A stretch of 64,000 nucleotides of DNA, taken from assembly GCA_024672275.1 (NCBI GenBank), contig GCA_024672275.1_4536.1. The stretch is one strand, 5' to 3'. Shown in pieces: positions 5,382 through 49,939 of this stretch. The notes below the pieces were generated by a model. That model saw only the letters and a program-made list of their open reading frames with translations. It did not search any database and was not told the DNA's origin. Position numbers and translations under genes: made by a program. Source of the stretch: a phage. Every line of letters starts with the position of its first letter. Within the stretch, counting starts at the first letter, position 1.

Positions 5382-7457
5382 GTGGCAAAGAAAAAGGCAG
5401 CAGGTAGTTTAGCTGGAGTAGATATTGAAGTAAAGGCTCAACCAGGTAAACAGACTCTTGCAATGGATTTAATGCCAGAAGTTATGATTTATGGTGGTGC
5501 CGCTGGATGTGTTTCTGCTGAAACAGAATATCTTACAAAAGATGGTTGGAGACAGATTAGTGAATATTCTGGAGAGGATATTTACCAATACAATCCTAAG
5601 AATAAGCGTTTAGAATTGGTAACACCTTATTTTGTAGAATACGATTTAAATGGAGATAACCTATACAGAATAACAAATGGTGTAGGATTGTTCCAAGAAC
5701 TTAGTATGGAACACCGTTTTGTATTCTATAAGAAAAAGAAATCAAAGAAACATTTCGAGATTCTTGTAGGAGATCTTATTGCATTACAGCAAATAGGAAA
5801 ACCCCTGCAAGGTTATGTAGAAAATCCATTCGGTAAACGTGTTCCTTTTAACATACCTGGTAAAAAGAGCACTTACTTAAAAATACACGAGGTTATTTCA
5901 ACAGATGATAAGAAATATTGTTTTGAGACTCCAAGCAGCTATATTGTCTTTAGACGTGGCGATCACTGCTTCGTTACTGGGAATAGCGGCAAGTCTCGTC
6001 TGCTATTGCTGAAAGCTTTAAAATACGCCTACAAAGACCCTTTGTTTGGTGGAATACTTTTCCGTAAGAACACCACTGCTCACCGTAAACCAGGTGGTCT
6101 GTTTACAGAAGCAAAACGTTTGTATCTTCCTTTACAACCGCACGTAAAAGAAAGTACAATGGATATCATTTTTGAAGCCACTGGTGGTGGAACCCTAAAA
6201 TTTGACCATTTGGAAAATGATAACGTAACAGCAGAAACAAACCATCAGGGTACACAGTATTCAATGGTAGGTTTTGACGAGTTAACCCACTTCACACAAT
6301 ATGAAATGCTCTATCTTCTGGGACGTATGCGTTCAGAGTCAGAAACAAGTTTCATGTTGTGCACATGTAACCCTGACGCAGATAGTTGGGTTTTGAATTG
6401 GGTGTTACCTTATCTTGATGAGGGTGGTTATCCTAGAGAAGATATGTGTGGTAAACAAAAATATTTCATCATTGTTAACGATGAACCTGTTTTTGCTGAC
6501 ACACCTGAAGAACTGAAAGAAAAATATCCAGAAAACTGTTTCATGGAAAACCCTAATACAGGGGAGACAGTTGTTATTGAACCACAAACTTTCGTATTTA
6601 TTGGTGGGACAATATTTGATAACCCAGAACTCATTAGGCTTAACCCTAATTACTTAGCACAGCTTAAATCACAAACAGCTATCAAAAGAGCACAGCTTCT
6701 GGATGGTTGTTGGTTTGCACGTATTCAGAAAGAATCTTTCTTTCAACGTGAATGGTTACATAAAATATCTTATAAAGATGTTCCTAACAATCTTAAACTA
6801 ATGCGAGCATGGGATAAAGCTGTTTCAGTTCCTACAGAAACTTACCGTTATCCAGACTATACAACATCTGTCAAAATGGGTAAAGACCAAGATGGTAATA
6901 TCTACATCTTTGGCGACTATGATTATGATGCTGTGGATGAGAAAAGTAAAATTTTTGGAAGGTTTCGAAGACTACCTGGGGAAAGGGATAACCTGATTCT
7001 AAATCAATGTAAGATTGATGGACCAGAAGTTACAGTAGTGCTTCCTAAAGACCCATCTGGTGCTGGGACAATAGAATACACAGAGTCTGCAAAGAAACTT
7101 ATTCTAGAAGGTTTTGTTGTTAAACCAGATGCTATGCCAGGTAACAAGAAAAAGCTTCAGCGTTTTATGCCTTTTAGTAGTGCGTGTCAAAACGGTTTTG
7201 TTTATATTGTTGAAGATTCTTTCCCTAATGTGGAAACTTTAACCCACTTTTATAAAGAATTGGAATCTTTCAATGGTGAAAGATCTACAGCCACTATTAA
7301 AGATGACATTCCCGATGCTGCTGCCTCTTGTTTTAATACTCTGTCAAAAGAGAATACTTTCAAAGCAGTAGCTATCCCTACAACAACAAATGCTCCTACA
7401 GGATACAGTAGAATGAACAGCGGATTTCACCAACCGTATAGTGTCCGTAAAAGATAA
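5382..7457 (+). CDS. terL: terminase large subunit, interrupted by a mini-intein in the Walker A motif
   Basis: GTG start after AAGGAGGG; extein Walker A reconstitutes as GGAAG|SGKS across the intein; Walker B-like VGFDELTH; nuclease-domain acidic motifs (DPSGAG); size and position before portal. Confidence 0.85.
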   Translation: MAKKKAAGSLAGVDIEVKAQPGKQTLAMDLMPEVMIYGGAAGCVSAETEYLTKDGWRQISEYSGEDIYQYNPKNKRLELVTPYFVEYDLNGDNLYRITNGVGLFQELSMEHRFVFYKKKKSKKHFEILVGDLIALQQIGKPLQGYVENPFGKRVPFNIPGKKSTYLKIHEVISTDDKKYCFETPSSYIVFRRGDHCFVTGNSGKSRLLLLKALKYAYKDPLFGGILFRKNTTAHRKPGGLFTEAKRLYLPLQPHVKESTMDIIFEATGGGTLKFDHLENDNVTAETNHQGTQYSMVGFDELTHFTQYEMLYLLGRMRSESETSFMLCTCNPDADSWVLNWVLPYLDEGGYPREDMCGKQKYFIIVNDEPVFADTPEELKEKYPENCFMENPNTGETVVIEPQTFVFIGGTIFDNPELIRLNPNYLAQLKSQTAIKRAQLLDGCWFARIQKESFFQREWLHKISYKDVPNNLKLMRAWDKAVSVPTETYRYPDYTTSVKMGKDQDGNIYIFGDYDYDAVDEKSKIFGRFRRLPGERDNLILNQCKIDGPEVTVVLPKDPSGAGTIEYTESAKKLILEGFVVKPDAMPGNKKKLQRFMPFSSACQNGFVYIVEDSFPNVETLTHFYKELESFNGERSTATIKDDIPDAAASCFNTLSKENTFKAVAIPTTTNAPTGYSRMNSGFHQPYSVRKR
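5508..5984 (+). mobile_element. mini-intein (159 aa, Hint domain only) inserted in terminase P-loop
   Basis: begins Cys (CVSAETEYLTKDG, block A-like), TxxH-like SMEH, ends ...HCFVTGN followed by Ser(+1); excision restores GxxxxGK[ST]. Confidence 0.75.
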
Positions 7458-45977: not shown

Positions 45978-46188
45978 TGATACGCTCCACAGTTACTTTT
46001 ACAACATCGTCCATATTAATCTCATCCCCCAAGACCTCAATAACACCTTCCTCATAAAGTCGAGCACATTCTTCCCACACTTCAGCTTCCGTCATTCCAC
46101 CTGCAATCTTATTTGCAAGACCTTTAATAACATCTTCATTTTGTTCATCAACAAGAATTGAAACATTAAAGCTCACTAATTTACGCAT
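45970..46188 (-). CDS. hypothetical small acidic protein (72 aa)
   Basis: ATG with GGAGAA RBS; overlaps upstream gene by 8 nt. Confidence 0.45.
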   Translation of the reverse strand: MRKLVSFNVSILVDEQNEDVIKGLANKIAGGMTEAEVWEECARLYEEGVIEVLGDEINMDDVVKVTVERIND

Positions 46189-46198
46189 TGTTTTCTCC

Positions 46199-46366
46199 TT
46201 ATACTTCTAAACGGAAAGTTTCTTTAGATACAAAATCGTATCCACCTTTTTCAAGCCAGTCATTGTAAACCTCATCGGCTTGAGACTCTATCATAAAATA
46301 CCGAGTGGTAATTTCGTCTCCGACAATACGCACAATTTTATAGCAAATCATGATACCATTTCCCAT
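46199..46366 (-). CDS. hypothetical small protein (55 aa)
   Basis: ATG 46366..46364 with GGAGGAAG upstream; TAATG overlap with upstream stop; below ORF-track cutoff. Confidence 0.4.
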   Translation of the reverse strand: MGNGIMICYKIVRIVGDEITTRYFMIESQADEVYNDWLEKGGYDFVSKETFRLEV

Positions 46367-46557
46367 TAATCTTCCTCCAGATCAATTTCATTATAACAAT
46401 GTATGCAGAAACCATCATTGTGCATATGTTGTTCATAAGACATATCTTTACCACAAGACCAACAACGGATATCCCCATCATCCCATTCACGTTCTTCTCC
46501 ACCTTCAAATTCATCTGGTAGATAAGGCATACCAAAACAATCTAAATCGTAACTCAT
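46366..46557 (-). CDS. small zinc-ribbon protein (63 aa)
   Basis: internal ATG 46557 with GGAGA RBS (ORF-track start 46662 would overlap polymerase); CWSCG ... CIHC cysteine pairs. Confidence 0.45.
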   Translation of the reverse strand: MSYDLDCFGMPYLPDEFEGGEEREWDDGDIRCWSCGKDMSYEQHMHNDGFCIHCYNEIDLEED

Positions 46558-46570
46558 ATCTTCTCCTATA

Positions 46571-46588
46571 AAGGGGCAGAAGCCCCTT
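46571..46588 (-). terminator. terminator-like hairpin downstream of DNA polymerase
   Basis: aaggggc-ttct-gcccctt hairpin; weak U-tract. Confidence 0.35.
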
Positions 46589-46606
46589 ATAAAACAATAC
46601 GTTAGA

Positions 46607-49600
46607 TCAGTGACAACTGGCCCAGGAATTCCCCACGTCATATCCAGCAGTAAGCTGAACATTAAGATTGTAAAATTCTCCAGCCTTAGTAACAGCTAAA
46701 GCAGCAAGTTCACCTGCCCGACTATAAGCTGTAAACCATCCACCTTTGGGAGATTCATGAATGTTAGCCCAAATTTGCCCTGTCTCTTTTTCCTTATTAT
46801 GCTTCCATTCTTCAACTTTAGCAAGGCATTCTTTATCAATTTTCTTTTGTTCTTCAGGATCGTCTACTTTCTTCCAACCTAATGATTCAGGTGAAAACCA
46901 TTTGAATTCTACGAGGTTACGAGAAACTTCAAGCTGGGCTTCATCGTGATATGCAATCATTTGTTGCACGAAGTCTTTATTCTTCCAGTCATCTTTAAAG
47001 AAGTCAACACTTAATCCTTCTTCTTCGATCATATCGTCATAAATAACCATTGCACGTTTAGCACAGATAACCCCACCGCTTTGGAACAGAGAGTTAAGAA
47101 TCGCGTGAGCAGAACGAGTAGGAACCTTACGACCGTCAATACCCAAAACATATTGTTTACCAGTCTTAACCCAGAAATCGTTTAAACGTTCTTTAAGACG
47201 CGCCAATGGGAATGCAGCTTCCCAGAAAGCATCGAACACCAATTGACCTGTAAACTTATCGCTACCAATTGTTTTAGCAACCTTGTCGGCTTGTGCACCA
47301 TAGGTAATACCATACTTAACAGATTTAGCAGGACTACGTTCAAATTTACGTCCAATAGTTTCAGTGATACGTTTTGCCATCATTGTGTGAACATCATTAG
47401 GTTTCTCTAACAACAGAGCGTTACAATATTCGTGTGGCTCCGGCTCGTACCGCCAACAGTTTCCTGTGATGGTAATGCAGTCTTTCTGACGCATGACCCA
47501 CGTACCAAGTTCTGTTTGTGGACACCAAACATCCTCTACACCCCACTCTTCAATAGTCAAACTTTGAACAGGAATGTGAGAGCGGTTAGTCAATGTTGCC
47601 ACTTTTACTTTCTGCTCTTTTGTATTGAAAGCTACAGAGATATTGCCTCCATGCACCAGGTACGAGGCAGTTAAAGCTGCTTCAAAAAGTTCACCTGGGT
47701 TCTGCGCCCAACGCCAAACAGGTTTTTGTTTATGTTCGTGCCAGTAACCATCTGCAATCAAGAAACCTTCCAAGAAAGCTACACGCTCGGCATGAGACAT
47801 ATTAACTACACGTTCTACCCACGGAACATCCCATTTACCTTGTTGAACATAAGTTAAACTATTTACCTGATCTTGTTCCATGTTAAATGGAGCATTACAA
47901 ATAATGTTATCTCCTGTGCAAAGCTCGGCAGTTGTTCTGACTTTAGGCACATAAGTATTCCCTTTACTACGGGTATTAACATACCAACGGTGATCTGCTG
48001 TTGCACGGTAAGTGTGTGATTTCCCTTTAATCTCAAACGTCTTACTATTTTTATAGAAGACCTTACCTTTTACTTTAGTCCATTCTTTCAGACCTGTTTC
48101 AGCATTGTACCCTAAAATCTCATCCCCTTCCTTCAGGTCGTGATATCCTACCCAACCTTTACGAGTCAAAGCTTGAGCATCCATCGGCACACAGTAGTGT
48201 GATTCAATTTTTGCTTCCAAAGAGTCGAAGTCGTAGCCAATCTGGAAGTATTTAGGAACCTCTACACCAAACAAGTTACGCATCTCCCATCCAAACAAAG
48301 ATGTGACACGAGGAATATTAGCTACAGATCTGTGCTTCATACGAGAAGTTGCAGCATCACATGTAGCGGCTGGGGTAGGAATACGACCATCTGCCCTTAC
48401 TGCGGCTAAGAAACCTTTATCGTATTCTTGATCTTCCTCATCTTCTTCCCAATCAGCACCACCACCTAAAATAGAGTTCCTACGATGTTTATACGTTAAG
48501 TATTCTACAATCTGCGTAGCATAAGGGAATTTCTCACCCAAAGCTTGCAGGTTAGGACAAATTTCTTTTTCCTGACCTTTGGTAAAACATGGGTTAGTCA
48601 ATACTTTAAGACCGCGACCTTTACCTTTTGCTATACGCTCTTGAATCTTCCTTTCCAAAGTTTCCGGTGTGCACTCCAGATGATCACAACGATCCTGACA
48701 AAAATTAGAAGATAGAGTTTGCTCAACGTAAGCTCTAATACCTTTCTGAAGTTCTTCCTCGCTCTTTTTAATTTTGGTGCCAGATTTAAGCGTCAAGTCT
48801 TTATCTTTATATTCAGACGGTACCCAACCTAATCCTACAAGCCAGTTTTTAATATGGGTTGTATCGTTCAATGTTGCAGGAATGTTAGGATCACATAGAG
48901 GCTCATCTGCTGCAACTGGCAGTTTCCACTCTTTCCCCAACATAACTAACCACCAATCGCCATCCCTCTCTTCCAAATGACCATCATGTTTCTTAGCAAA
49001 ATTGATCATATGGTTAGTTGGCTCTAAGTTCTTTTTAATTTGCAACTTAGGTGGAATAAAAGCCTTAAGATAACCTTTTGTTGCTGGTTTAGGTGGCAAA
49101 ATAGGCTCAACGAGTAAACGAAGACGCTCCATTTCTGCATCCAAAAAAGCAAGGTTCTCTTCTGCTTGTTTCATGTTAAAAGCAAACCCACGGTGTTCCT
49201 GGCGTGTAATAATGTCTGCTACACGTTGTTCAAGTTCAAATGGACCTTCCCATTTATCATAATCACCCCATTCTTCCATAAGGTAATTATATACGCTCGT
49301 ATTGGCTTTGTTGTCATAGATACAGTAATAAAGCATATCCGCAGCAAAAGTCTTAAATCGATCTTCTTCTGGAATCTCTTTACGGAAATCTATTTTTACA
49401 TCACCACCTGCTTTTCGAGAAAGTGCTGCCAAGCTATGTCCTGATTTGCCCTCAATCTTTCGATCTGGGTTTAACACTTTACTCAAAATCAAGGAGTCAA
49501 TAAGTTTTACCTTATTTTTGCCCCACGTATTATATTTAACACTGTAATCTAATCCATAAAACAGTTTTGTAGCCAACCAGTCGTAGTTGATACCGTTGTG

Positions 49601-49939
49601 AGCCACAGCCATTTCAACTAGATATTCAGGCTTGTCTTTAAAATAACCTTCATGATTAATAAAATCTGGGAAATCTTTTAGTTGAAAATGTGTGTAATCT
49701 TGCGCCACATACTCTTTAAGAACATATGTGTATTTACCATCTGACTCTTCGTAAGGACGCCCATCAAAGATGTATTTAGGGCCATCGTGGAAAGCTACTA
49801 TTTCTCCTGTTTCATGGTTCTCTAAGACAATACAGTGCATTTGAAATGTGTCTTTGAGACGATAAGGACTAGCTAAATAATCAATAGTGTCATTATTCAA
49901 CAATCCGTTTGCTTCAATATCCCATGTAAACTTACTCAC
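46607..49939 (-). CDS. DNA polymerase, family A with N-terminal 3'-5' exonuclease, interrupted by an intein
   Basis: 1110 aa; exo motif DIEANGL; motif A-like DFDSLEAKIESHY split from downstream extein; motif B RSPAKSVKYGITYG (compare Klenow RRSAKAINFGLIYG). Confidence 0.85.
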   Translation of the reverse strand: MSKFTWDIEANGLLNNDTIDYLASPYRLKDTFQMHCIVLENHETGEIVAFHDGPKYIFDGRPYEESDGKYTYVLKEYVAQDYTHFQLKDFPDFINHEGYFKDKPEYLVEMAVAHNGINYDWLATKLFYGLDYSVKYNTWGKNKVKLIDSLILSKVLNPDRKIEGKSGHSLAALSRKAGGDVKIDFRKEIPEEDRFKTFAADMLYYCIYDNKANTSVYNYLMEEWGDYDKWEGPFELEQRVADIITRQEHRGFAFNMKQAEENLAFLDAEMERLRLLVEPILPPKPATKGYLKAFIPPKLQIKKNLEPTNHMINFAKKHDGHLEERDGDWWLVMLGKEWKLPVAADEPLCDPNIPATLNDTTHIKNWLVGLGWVPSEYKDKDLTLKSGTKIKKSEEELQKGIRAYVEQTLSSNFCQDRCDHLECTPETLERKIQERIAKGKGRGLKVLTNPCFTKGQEKEICPNLQALGEKFPYATQIVEYLTYKHRRNSILGGGADWEEDEEDQEYDKGFLAAVRADGRIPTPAATCDAATSRMKHRSVANIPRVTSLFGWEMRNLFGVEVPKYFQIGYDFDSLEAKIESHYCVPMDAQALTRKGWVGYHDLKEGDEILGYNAETGLKEWTKVKGKVFYKNSKTFEIKGKSHTYRATADHRWYVNTRSKGNTYVPKVRTTAELCTGDNIICNAPFNMEQDQVNSLTYVQQGKWDVPWVERVVNMSHAERVAFLEGFLIADGYWHEHKQKPVWRWAQNPGELFEAALTASYLVHGGNISVAFNTKEQKVKVATLTNRSHIPVQSLTIEEWGVEDVWCPQTELGTWVMRQKDCITITGNCWRYEPEPHEYCNALLLEKPNDVHTMMAKRITETIGRKFERSPAKSVKYGITYGAQADKVAKTIGSDKFTGQLVFDAFWEAAFPLARLKERLNDFWVKTGKQYVLGIDGRKVPTRSAHAILNSLFQSGGVICAKRAMVIYDDMIEEEGLSVDFFKDDWKNKDFVQQMIAYHDEAQLEVSRNLVEFKWFSPESLGWKKVDDPEEQKKIDKECLAKVEEWKHNKEKETGQIWANIHESPKGGWFTAYSRAGELAALAVTKAGEFYNLNVQLTAGYDVGNSWASCH
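47459..48193 (-). mobile_element. intein (245 aa) with LAGLIDADG homing-endonuclease motif, inserted just after polymerase motif A
   Basis: starts Cys583 (CVPMDAQALTRKGW), TxxH block (TADH), LEGFLIADGYWHEH, ends ...DCITITGN followed by Cys(+1). Confidence 0.7.

Follow-up and report, generated by a model that had tools for sequence, protein, structure and literature searches.

The stretch of DNA considered here (the window, 64,000 nucleotides of contig GCA_024672275.1_4536.1, GenBank assembly GCA_024672275.1) comes from a Phapecoctavirus-like myovirus of E. coli and carries a DNA polymerase gene that is interrupted by an intein. The open reading frame (ORF) encodes a DNA polymerase of family A that is T7-like and includes a 3'-5' exonuclease domain (Pfam DNA_pol_A match). 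T7 DNA polymerase was matched by the ORF in a phmmer search (E 1e-22), and the gene is 98.5% identical to the Phapecoctavirus genes of phages EF1-1 and iGC_PHA_EC001. An original prediction for this DNA had placed a LAGLIDADG intein in motif A of the polymerase without giving the strand. The coding strand is the minus strand; the plus-strand translation of 47459..48193 is full of stops. The parts of the gene and of the intein are as follows.

46607..49939, minus: intein-containing polymerase precursor gene, ORF of 1110 residues, 865 residues after splicing
48194..49939, minus: N-extein, residues 1-582, terminating in ...DFDSLEAKIESHY (motif A)
47459..48193, minus: intein of 245 residues, Cys1 to Asn245 (ORF residues 583-827), 735 base pairs (bp); an exact indel relative to phage ABPW7, labelled as an intein in GenBank MZ501100
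48152..48193, minus: block A, CVPMDAQALTRKGW, with the nucleophile Cys1 (127/127 family members)
47978..48010, minus: block B, YRATADHRWYV, with Thr65 (B7), His68 (B10), Arg69 (B11) and Trp70 (B12)
47582..47794, minus: predicted single LAGLIDADG half-domain, intein residues 134-204, made up of helix HAERVAFLEGFLIADG containing Asp148, a pair of beta-hairpins and a further helix, with Gln164 conserved
47486..47533, minus: block F, DVWCPQTELGTWVMRQ, with Cys224 at F4, 21 residues before Asn245 (Cys in 127/127)
47459..47479, minus: block G, CITITGN, with Thr243 (G5), Gly244 (G6, where His is expected) and Asn245 (G7)
47456..47458, minus: Cys+1 (Cys828 of the ORF), first C-extein residue and second nucleophile; Cys also in the intein-less allele
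46607..47458, minus: C-extein, residues 828-1110 plus stop, holding motif B SPAKSVKYGITYGA

The composition of the insert can be read directly and agrees with what had been predicted: 245 residues that start CVPMDAQ, hold T65-A-D-H68 and LEGFLIADGYW (residues 141-151), and end CITITGN before Cys828. Blocks A, B, F and G are all present, as are the N-terminal Cys, the T-x-x-H motif, the C-terminal Asn and the +1 Cys, and the penultimate residue (G6) is Gly244 in place of His. The predicted position within the polymerase also holds. When aligned to T7 DNA polymerase by phmmer, the ORF places 'ydfdsleakieshy' over T7 'IDASGLELRCLAHF' and 'rspaksvkygitygaq' over T7 'RDNAKTFIYGFLYGAG', stretches which we take to be motif A with the catalytic Asp and motif B, respectively. 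With the two stretches identified in this way, the insertion point falls within the motif A helix, 12 residues past the motif A Asp, and motif B follows downstream of the insert.

Occupied and empty polymerase alleles

Comparison with intein-free polymerase homologues, the check that had been proposed for the prediction, showed the extein to be continuous across the junction. In Acinetobacter phage ABPW7 exactly these 735 bases are missing, in frame, while the flanks are 96-99% identical and the polymerase is 99% identical in both exteins. The empty allele of ABPW7 reads ...GAATCACATTAC/TGTTGGCGG, or ...ESHY/CWRY(E), where the slash marks the insertion point, and the empty site in phAPEC8 or ABPW7 is TTGAATCACATTAC/TGTTGGCGGTACGAG. 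An 81-nucleotide probe spanning the empty junction was matched without interruption in 86 of 121 related phage records, and the rest matched half of the probe only. The intein itself was found at 90% identity or more in 35 records of the phage collection (tblastn). It is carried by about a third of otherwise near-identical phages, and occupied and empty states both occur in Phapecoctavirus and in Justusliebigvirus. T7 DNA polymerase likewise aligns straight across the junction. The insert is a genuine intein, confirmed to the base.

Records that share the name VEcB differ in the state of the site: OZ035773.1 has the polymerase intein (98% identical), and MT932211.1/NC_052663.1 has an empty site. 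The presence of the intein therefore varies even within one named species.

The intein is already known. GenBank MZ501100.1 (Escherichia phage PaulScherrer, BASEL Bas60) annotates the same element as an intein in an 'intein-containing DNA polymerase precursor', the wording used as well in PQ821640.1 (phage SD2), and phi92 gp159 carries the same intein unannotated. The BASEL paper found inteins by comparative genomics and gives two for Bas60 in a table. The mat_peptide of MZ501100.1 (L003:2504-3238) is off by one codon and runs from V2 to C+1, with Cys1 to Asn245 lying at L003:2501-3235; the offset is explained by TGT at both ends of the insert, which makes the alignment ambiguous by 3 nucleotides. 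Although the element is on record, the state of annotation indicates that awareness of it is low.

The PaulScherrer intein occupies the same site, is also 245 residues long, and is 97% identical in amino acids and 92% in DNA to the intein of the window, whereas PaulScherrer belongs to the genus Justusliebigvirus and the window phage is Phapecoctavirus-like. DNA identity between the two phages is 92.0% in the intein compared with 72.7% in the N-extein and 79.8% in the C-extein, which argues that the intein moved between the genera after their divergence and, as judged from this comparison, is horizontally mobile. Only 7 of the 59 nucleotide differences between the two inteins change an amino acid. 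The ratio of nonsynonymous to synonymous substitution rates (dN/dS) is 0.028 for the intein as a whole and 0.048 for its endonuclease segment, and by this measure the whole intein, endonuclease part included, is under purifying selection. Since the polymerase is essential and dN/dS is about 0.03, actual splicing is indirectly supported.

The intein family and its predicted endonuclease domain

A word-indexed homologue search returned nine relatives only. Among these were inteins of 243-245 residues in a small DUF6321-type protein (junction FDVYP/SAYANGWA) and mini versions of 142-163 residues, one of which (P0006) differs from its counterpart (P0002) solely by an 82-residue endonuclease module. 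An exhaustive profile search of 1.84 billion representatives gave 7283 proteins at E<=1e-3, of which 529 also pass E<=1e-30, and the family hidden Markov model (HMM) scores the polymerase intein at 288.9 bits. Among the best 150 of the 7283 were 126 full-length matches with a median length of 250 residues; all 126 start with Cys, 125 end in T-G-N, and the +1 residue is Ser in 65, Thr in 31 and Cys in 30. Hosts in the family are mostly family A polymerases, with the intein at the motif A site seen in the window, in the motif B region, at a ..H/SPN.. motif or at other positions, and the DUF6321-type protein is also frequent.

Conservation was counted across 127 aligned sequences. Cys1 (A1), Thr65 (B7), His68 (B10), Cys224 (F4), Thr243 (G5) and Asn245 (G7) are each present in 127/127, Trp70 (B12) and Gly244 (G6) in 126/127, and Arg or Lys at position 69 (B11) in 122/127. 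In the endonuclease part, Asp or Glu at position 148 (123/127) and Gly149 (124/127) of the LAGLIDADG motif are kept, as is Gln164 of the endonuclease domain (125/127).

Two metagenomic proteins, P0014 and P0020, each hold two inteins of this family about 20 residues apart (residues 288-545 and 567-809 in P0014); both members of a pair end in T-G-N, and the +1 residue is Ser in one and Cys in the other.

A related intein of 324 residues with two LAGLIDADG motifs, 32% identical and running from CVPVD.. to ..TLTGN, is found in phage nieznany (MN850598; L004:2501-3472). Its site lies 51 residues downstream, in motif B (KYG/C...TLTGN/CTYGAQ), where Cys replaces Ile at +1. The same type of intein occurs in ukendt, nepoznato, phiWec187 and three records labelled Campylobacter phage. 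Alleles with the nieznany-type intein have Thr, not Cys, at the +1 position of the window's site, with locally divergent flanks, TWRYDNPDH as against CWRYEPEPH, and DNA identity of 85% as against 95%.

An AlphaFold2 (AF2) model of the polymerase intein was built on eight family sequences, with the row for phage nieznany left out. The mean predicted local distance difference test score (pLDDT) is 83.4 and the predicted template modelling score (pTM) 0.81, and the model predicts a Hint domain with a single LAGLIDADG half-domain inserted between block B and block F. This half-domain has the LAGLIDADG helix with its conserved acidic residue followed by an alpha-beta-beta-alpha-beta-beta core. A profile of the endonuclease segment from 35 diverse family members matched LAGLIDADG enzymes only when compared with the PDB, the best being I-DmoI (E 0.0095); in both LAGLIDADG motifs of I-DmoI the acidic residue aligned with the family Asp, and the family Gln aligned with a Gln in the first I-DmoI half-domain. 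Based on the fold and the I-DmoI match, the LAGLIDADG-type domain of the original prediction stands, with the correction that it has one motif and not the usual two.

In this respect the intein differs from two-motif LAGLIDADG inteins such as PI-SceI, PI-PfuI, PI-PkoII and the TliVMA intein, which are monomers with two half-domains per chain (366-537 residues), whereas the intein of the window has one alpha-beta-beta-alpha-beta-beta unit of about 70-85 residues. I-CreI, I-MsoI and I-CeuI represent the homodimeric single-motif LAGLIDADG enzymes. Encoded in introns and free-standing, these have DNA-binding hairpins that are longer than those of the polymerase intein, and their targets are pseudo-palindromic, a symmetry that was not seen at the polymerase intein site. 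With one motif per chain in the model, a homodimeric intein endonuclease may be envisaged. Literature searches, confined to one library, found no relevant description of a single-motif LAGLIDADG domain inside an intein.

Proposed splicing and homing

The element is probably a self-splicing, horizontally mobile class 1 intein with one LAGLIDADG half-domain, and the following course of events is proposed with good but incomplete confidence. After translation, Cys1 would undergo an N-S acyl shift, positioned by Thr65 and His68 (the class 1 route), and the N-extein would then be transferred to Cys+1. Asn245 would cyclise without a penultimate His; with Gly244 in the penultimate place, Arg69 (B11) would have the space to polarise the scissile carbonyl, as happens in AceL NrdHF, and the 865-residue polymerase (...ESHY-CWRY...) would be freed. 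Cys224 (F4), with Trp70 and Thr243, most likely fills the coordinating role that Asp at F4 has in ordinary inteins. The excised intein would dimerise through its single LAGLIDADG helix to form an active site with two Asp148 residues. During co-infection the dimer would cut an empty allele near CATTAC/TGTTGG, and the intein would be copied in by recombinational repair.

The triplet of Trp at B12, Cys at F4 and Thr at G5 (WCT) defines the class 3 inteins (PMC2807308), whose working definition is the lack of Cys at the N-terminal end together with Cys at F4 (PMC7891396). The N-terminal nucleophile, Thr B7 and His B10 of class 1 inteins are present in the polymerase intein as C1, T65 and H68, each in 127/127, and position 1, which carries no nucleophile in class 3, is an invariant Cys. 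In class 1 inteins, position 1 is 'spring-loaded' by Thr B7, which class 3 inteins as a rule do not have (PMC6195587). The class 3 inteins of mycobacteriophage Bethlehem DnaB, Msm DnaB-1 and MchDnaB-1 share with the polymerase intein the WCT triplet, the 21-residue spacing and a phage association (PMC2807308, PMC5222942); they lack the N-terminal nucleophile, have usually lost Thr B7 and keep His at G6, unlike the polymerase intein family with its invariant Cys1 and Thr B7 and its Gly at G6. Because Cys1 and Thr B7 are kept without exception, the polymerase intein is filed as a class 1 intein carrying a WCT triplet, and membership in class 3 was rejected on the invariant Cys1. The predicted initiator of splicing is Cys1 (the class 1 route) and not Cys224. 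WCT inteins with Ser1 or Cys1 were reportedly examined by Tori and Perler in 2011. No description of the family's WCT-plus-Cys1 signature was found in the literature searched, which was that of one library only.

The closest solved relative is AceL NrdHF-1-1, a naturally split class 3 intein (PDB 6ZGQ, PMC7891396). It likewise ends in Thr144-Gly145-Asn146, has Cys at F4 and Arg at B11 and lacks His at G6; the F13 histidine is also absent, Arg69 (B11) lies near the C-scissile carbonyl, and the substitution G145H inactivates the intein (PMC7891396). AceL differs in starting with Ala, in being split, in having Met at B12 and in having no endonuclease, whereas the intein of the window has Cys1, Trp at B12, a contiguous chain and a predicted LAGLIDADG half-domain. 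The penultimate His is not obligatory more generally, being absent in AceL NrdHF, in DnaE and in phage inteins (PMC7891396, PMC5050341, PMC4031507). Phage class 1 inteins often do without it (Kelley et al. 2016, PMC5050341), and in the Bethlehem RDF intein, which has a penultimate Gly, G316H leads to precursor accumulation (PMC5050341). The original prediction was right that the usual His-Asn is missing, and this absence turns out to be common in phage inteins (PMC5050341). Its view of T-G-N as an oddity needs adjusting in the same way, as the ending is not peculiar to this phage: it is found in nearly all full-length members of a very large family and also in AceL NrdHF (PMC7891396).

Several observations count against the class 1, homing interpretation. 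When scanned alone, the intein gave no match in Pfam and NCBIfam, and Pfam LAGLIDADG_3 scores the window's domain at 14.6 bits compared with a cut-off of 22.5; of the 35 diverse family members, 17 match LAGLIDADG_3 at E<=1, all below threshold and none convincingly. The intein-borne LAGLIDADG enzymes solved to date have two half-domains. A palindrome scan of the empty homing site found no significant symmetry, the best score being 6/11 at 9 bp from the insertion point, a value equal to the 99th percentile of the gene background in a scan of 50 centres; this score neither supports nor excludes a homodimeric enzyme. The persistence of 86 empty sites indicates that homing is not sweeping. The WCT triplet is complete (W70, C224 and T243), so that a class 3 route is allowed by the sequence. 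No splicing or cleavage experiment was found for this intein or its family, nor was any biochemical or family-level account of the polymerase intein.

It is possible, though we consider it rather unlikely, that the single half-domain is what is left of a two-motif endonuclease that has decayed and lost its activity, and that the patchy distribution reflects homologous recombination with occasional precise loss rather than homing. The presence of one motif only, the two-motif relative of 324 residues in phage nieznany, the existence of mini versions without exactly this module (P0006 compared with P0002), the short beta-hairpins in the AF2 model, the non-palindromic target and the majority of empty sites would all fit such decay. 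The conserved Asp/Glu, Gly and active-site-like Gln are difficult to accommodate in a remnant, however, as the sequences are mostly less than 60% identical in the endonuclease region (greedy filtering at 60% identity left 95). The dN/dS value in the endonuclease segment, the one-motif architecture of about 245 residues that is the norm among the full-length matches, and an intein far more alike between genera than its host gene also argue for a functional domain.

A class 3 or dual route, in which Cys224 attacks the N-terminal junction to form a block F branched thioester before transfer to Cys+1, with Cys1 dispensable or regulatory (for example as a redox partner), appears considerably less probable still. 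The Trp(B12)-Cys(F4)-Thr(G5) triplet is essentially invariant in the family, the spacing of 21 from the F4 Cys to Asn is the same as in two class 3 inteins, Msm DnaB and Mle DnaB (PMC5222942), and 3 of 37 WCT inteins had already been flagged as having Ser1 or Cys1 and left unresolved (PMC2807308). The presence of both Cys1 and Thr B7 in all 127 diverse members would nevertheless be hard to explain if Cys1 were idle, since class 3 inteins are generally without Thr B7 (PMC6195587) and the class is defined operationally by the absent N-terminal Cys (PMC7891396). Cys is, moreover, the second commonest residue at F4 across inteins overall (PMC4031507), and class 1 inteins with Cys at F4 are described as polyphyletic (PMC3196547). 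One might also suppose, from the name 'DNA polymerase I' given to the whole ORF in most GenBank records, that the insert stays in the protein, being either a polymerase domain native to this lineage or an artefact of annotation or assembly. This reading has a negligible chance of being correct and is refuted by the intein-less alleles: the junction ...SHY/CWRY is intact in 86 related records, T7 DNA polymerase aligns through it, four intein blocks and both nucleophiles are present, and the predicted structure is a Hint fold, all in keeping with the original call of an intein.

The terminase mini-intein and the wider setting

A second intein lies in the terminase gene of the window, on the plus strand.

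5382..7457, plus: terminase large subunit precursor gene, 691 residues, Pfam Terminase_6N from residue 202
5508..5984, plus: terminase mini-intein, 159 residues, Cys43 to Asn201, no endonuclease domain
5703..5720, plus: block B, SMEHRF
5916..5930, plus: block F Cys in YCFET
5970..5984, plus: intein end FVTGN, followed by Ser+1 at 5985..5987

The insert starts CVSAETEY, ends HCFVTGN and splits the Walker A motif (GGAAG/SGKS). Within it, Cys138 stands 21 residues before Asn159, block B contains His-Arg-Phe, and B11 is Arg as in the polymerase intein. Intein-less Felixounavirus terminases align in one tblastn piece straight across the junction. In scans, the terminase insert gave only sub-threshold Intein_splicing or LAGLIDADG_3 matches, as did other family members. 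A single-sequence AF2 model of the mini-intein was unusable (pLDDT 37) and does not confirm its fold.

Both inteins of the window do end in T-G-N, as can be read directly, and the pattern TGN[CST] occurs only at these two ends among all 149 ORF segments of at least 80 residues in the window. In a weak sense, the two may be called related or similarly non-canonical, as had been suggested. The HMM of the polymerase-intein family aligns end to end with terminase residues 43-139 and 174-201 at 29 bits, every other ORF of the window scoring at most 4.2 bits, and the two inteins share Cys at F4, His-Arg and T-G-N. Pairwise similarity, on the other hand, is marginal, as BLASTP of one against the other matched block A only (E 0.064). 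A relative at the same Walker A site in phage 19-1-2 is full-length and endonuclease-bearing (...VVTGN/S); others occupy a third site in the polymerase of Acinetobacter phage ME3 (...SVTGN/S) and RtcB of Pseudomonas phage PS119XW (...ITGN/C), and Cys at F4 and the T-G-N end recur in these too. The two inteins of the window thus belong to a single broad clade of phage inteins, recognisable by Cys at F4 and a T-G-N end, within which they are only distantly related.

Every relative has the terminase insert, with identities of 79-100% in the two genera, and it is fixed in the Stephanstirmvirinae terminases that were examined. The inspected records, the curated one of Bas60 among them, do not annotate it as an intein; comparative genomics within the group is blind to it because no close relative is without the insert. 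It is probably an older, endonuclease-less mini-intein of the same broad clade that became fixed in the subfamily and only splices. Its position in the ATPase P-loop is that of most mycobacteriophage TerL inteins (Kelley et al. 2016, PMC5050341), from which it differs in its hosts and terminase type (Terminase_6N, E. coli myoviruses) and in being a mini-intein fixed in a subfamily. In phage nepoznato (NC_052658.1, 3553-6597) the terminase matches in two pieces, with two terminase coding sequences and an HNH endonuclease between them, which suggests insertion of a free-standing or intron-borne homing endonuclease in the mini-intein-carrying terminase gene.

The region directly downstream of the polymerase (46109..46606) is variable. 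In the window it matches ABPW7 at 98.8%; an HNH endonuclease gene is annotated at this place in EF1-1 (L002:1-500), and nieznany (L004:4176-4800) and PaulScherrer (L003:4089-4720) have other ORFs of about 190 residues; the downstream regions of these last three phages had no blastn match in the window. The region adjoining the polymerase looks like a hot spot for insertions of the homing-endonuclease type. In MN850645.1 (phage outra) and OM386653.1 (ESCO8) the polymerase is annotated 'putative DNA polymerase, part I', which points to a gene split by something other than the polymerase intein.

An intein in a phage replication gene is routine, and the value of the present one lies in the family rather than in this copy. 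Standard domain models miss the polymerase intein, and most of the approximately 35 records that carry it name the whole 1110-residue ORF 'DNA polymerase I'. A broader description, which in full we hold to be doubtful, would be that of a very large and practically undescribed family whose compact members, about 245 residues long, combine the invariant class 1 hallmarks (Cys1 and Thr B7) with a full WCT triplet, a His-less T-G-N end and a single LAGLIDADG half-domain that has to form homodimers for DNA cleavage. Across the family a one-motif LAGLIDADG module is retained, from which a homodimeric intein endonuclease is predicted. Being small, efficient and Cys-containing, such inteins are also of interest for protein engineering. 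Hundreds of diverse sequences with Cys1, Thr B7, Trp-Cys-Thr and T-G-N would also provide a natural test set for the relation between the block F cysteine mechanism and ordinary splicing. That class 3 inteins arose directly out of class 1 or class 2 has been argued to be unlikely (PMC7664689), and the family-level reading, if true, would bear on that argument about the origin of class 3 inteins.

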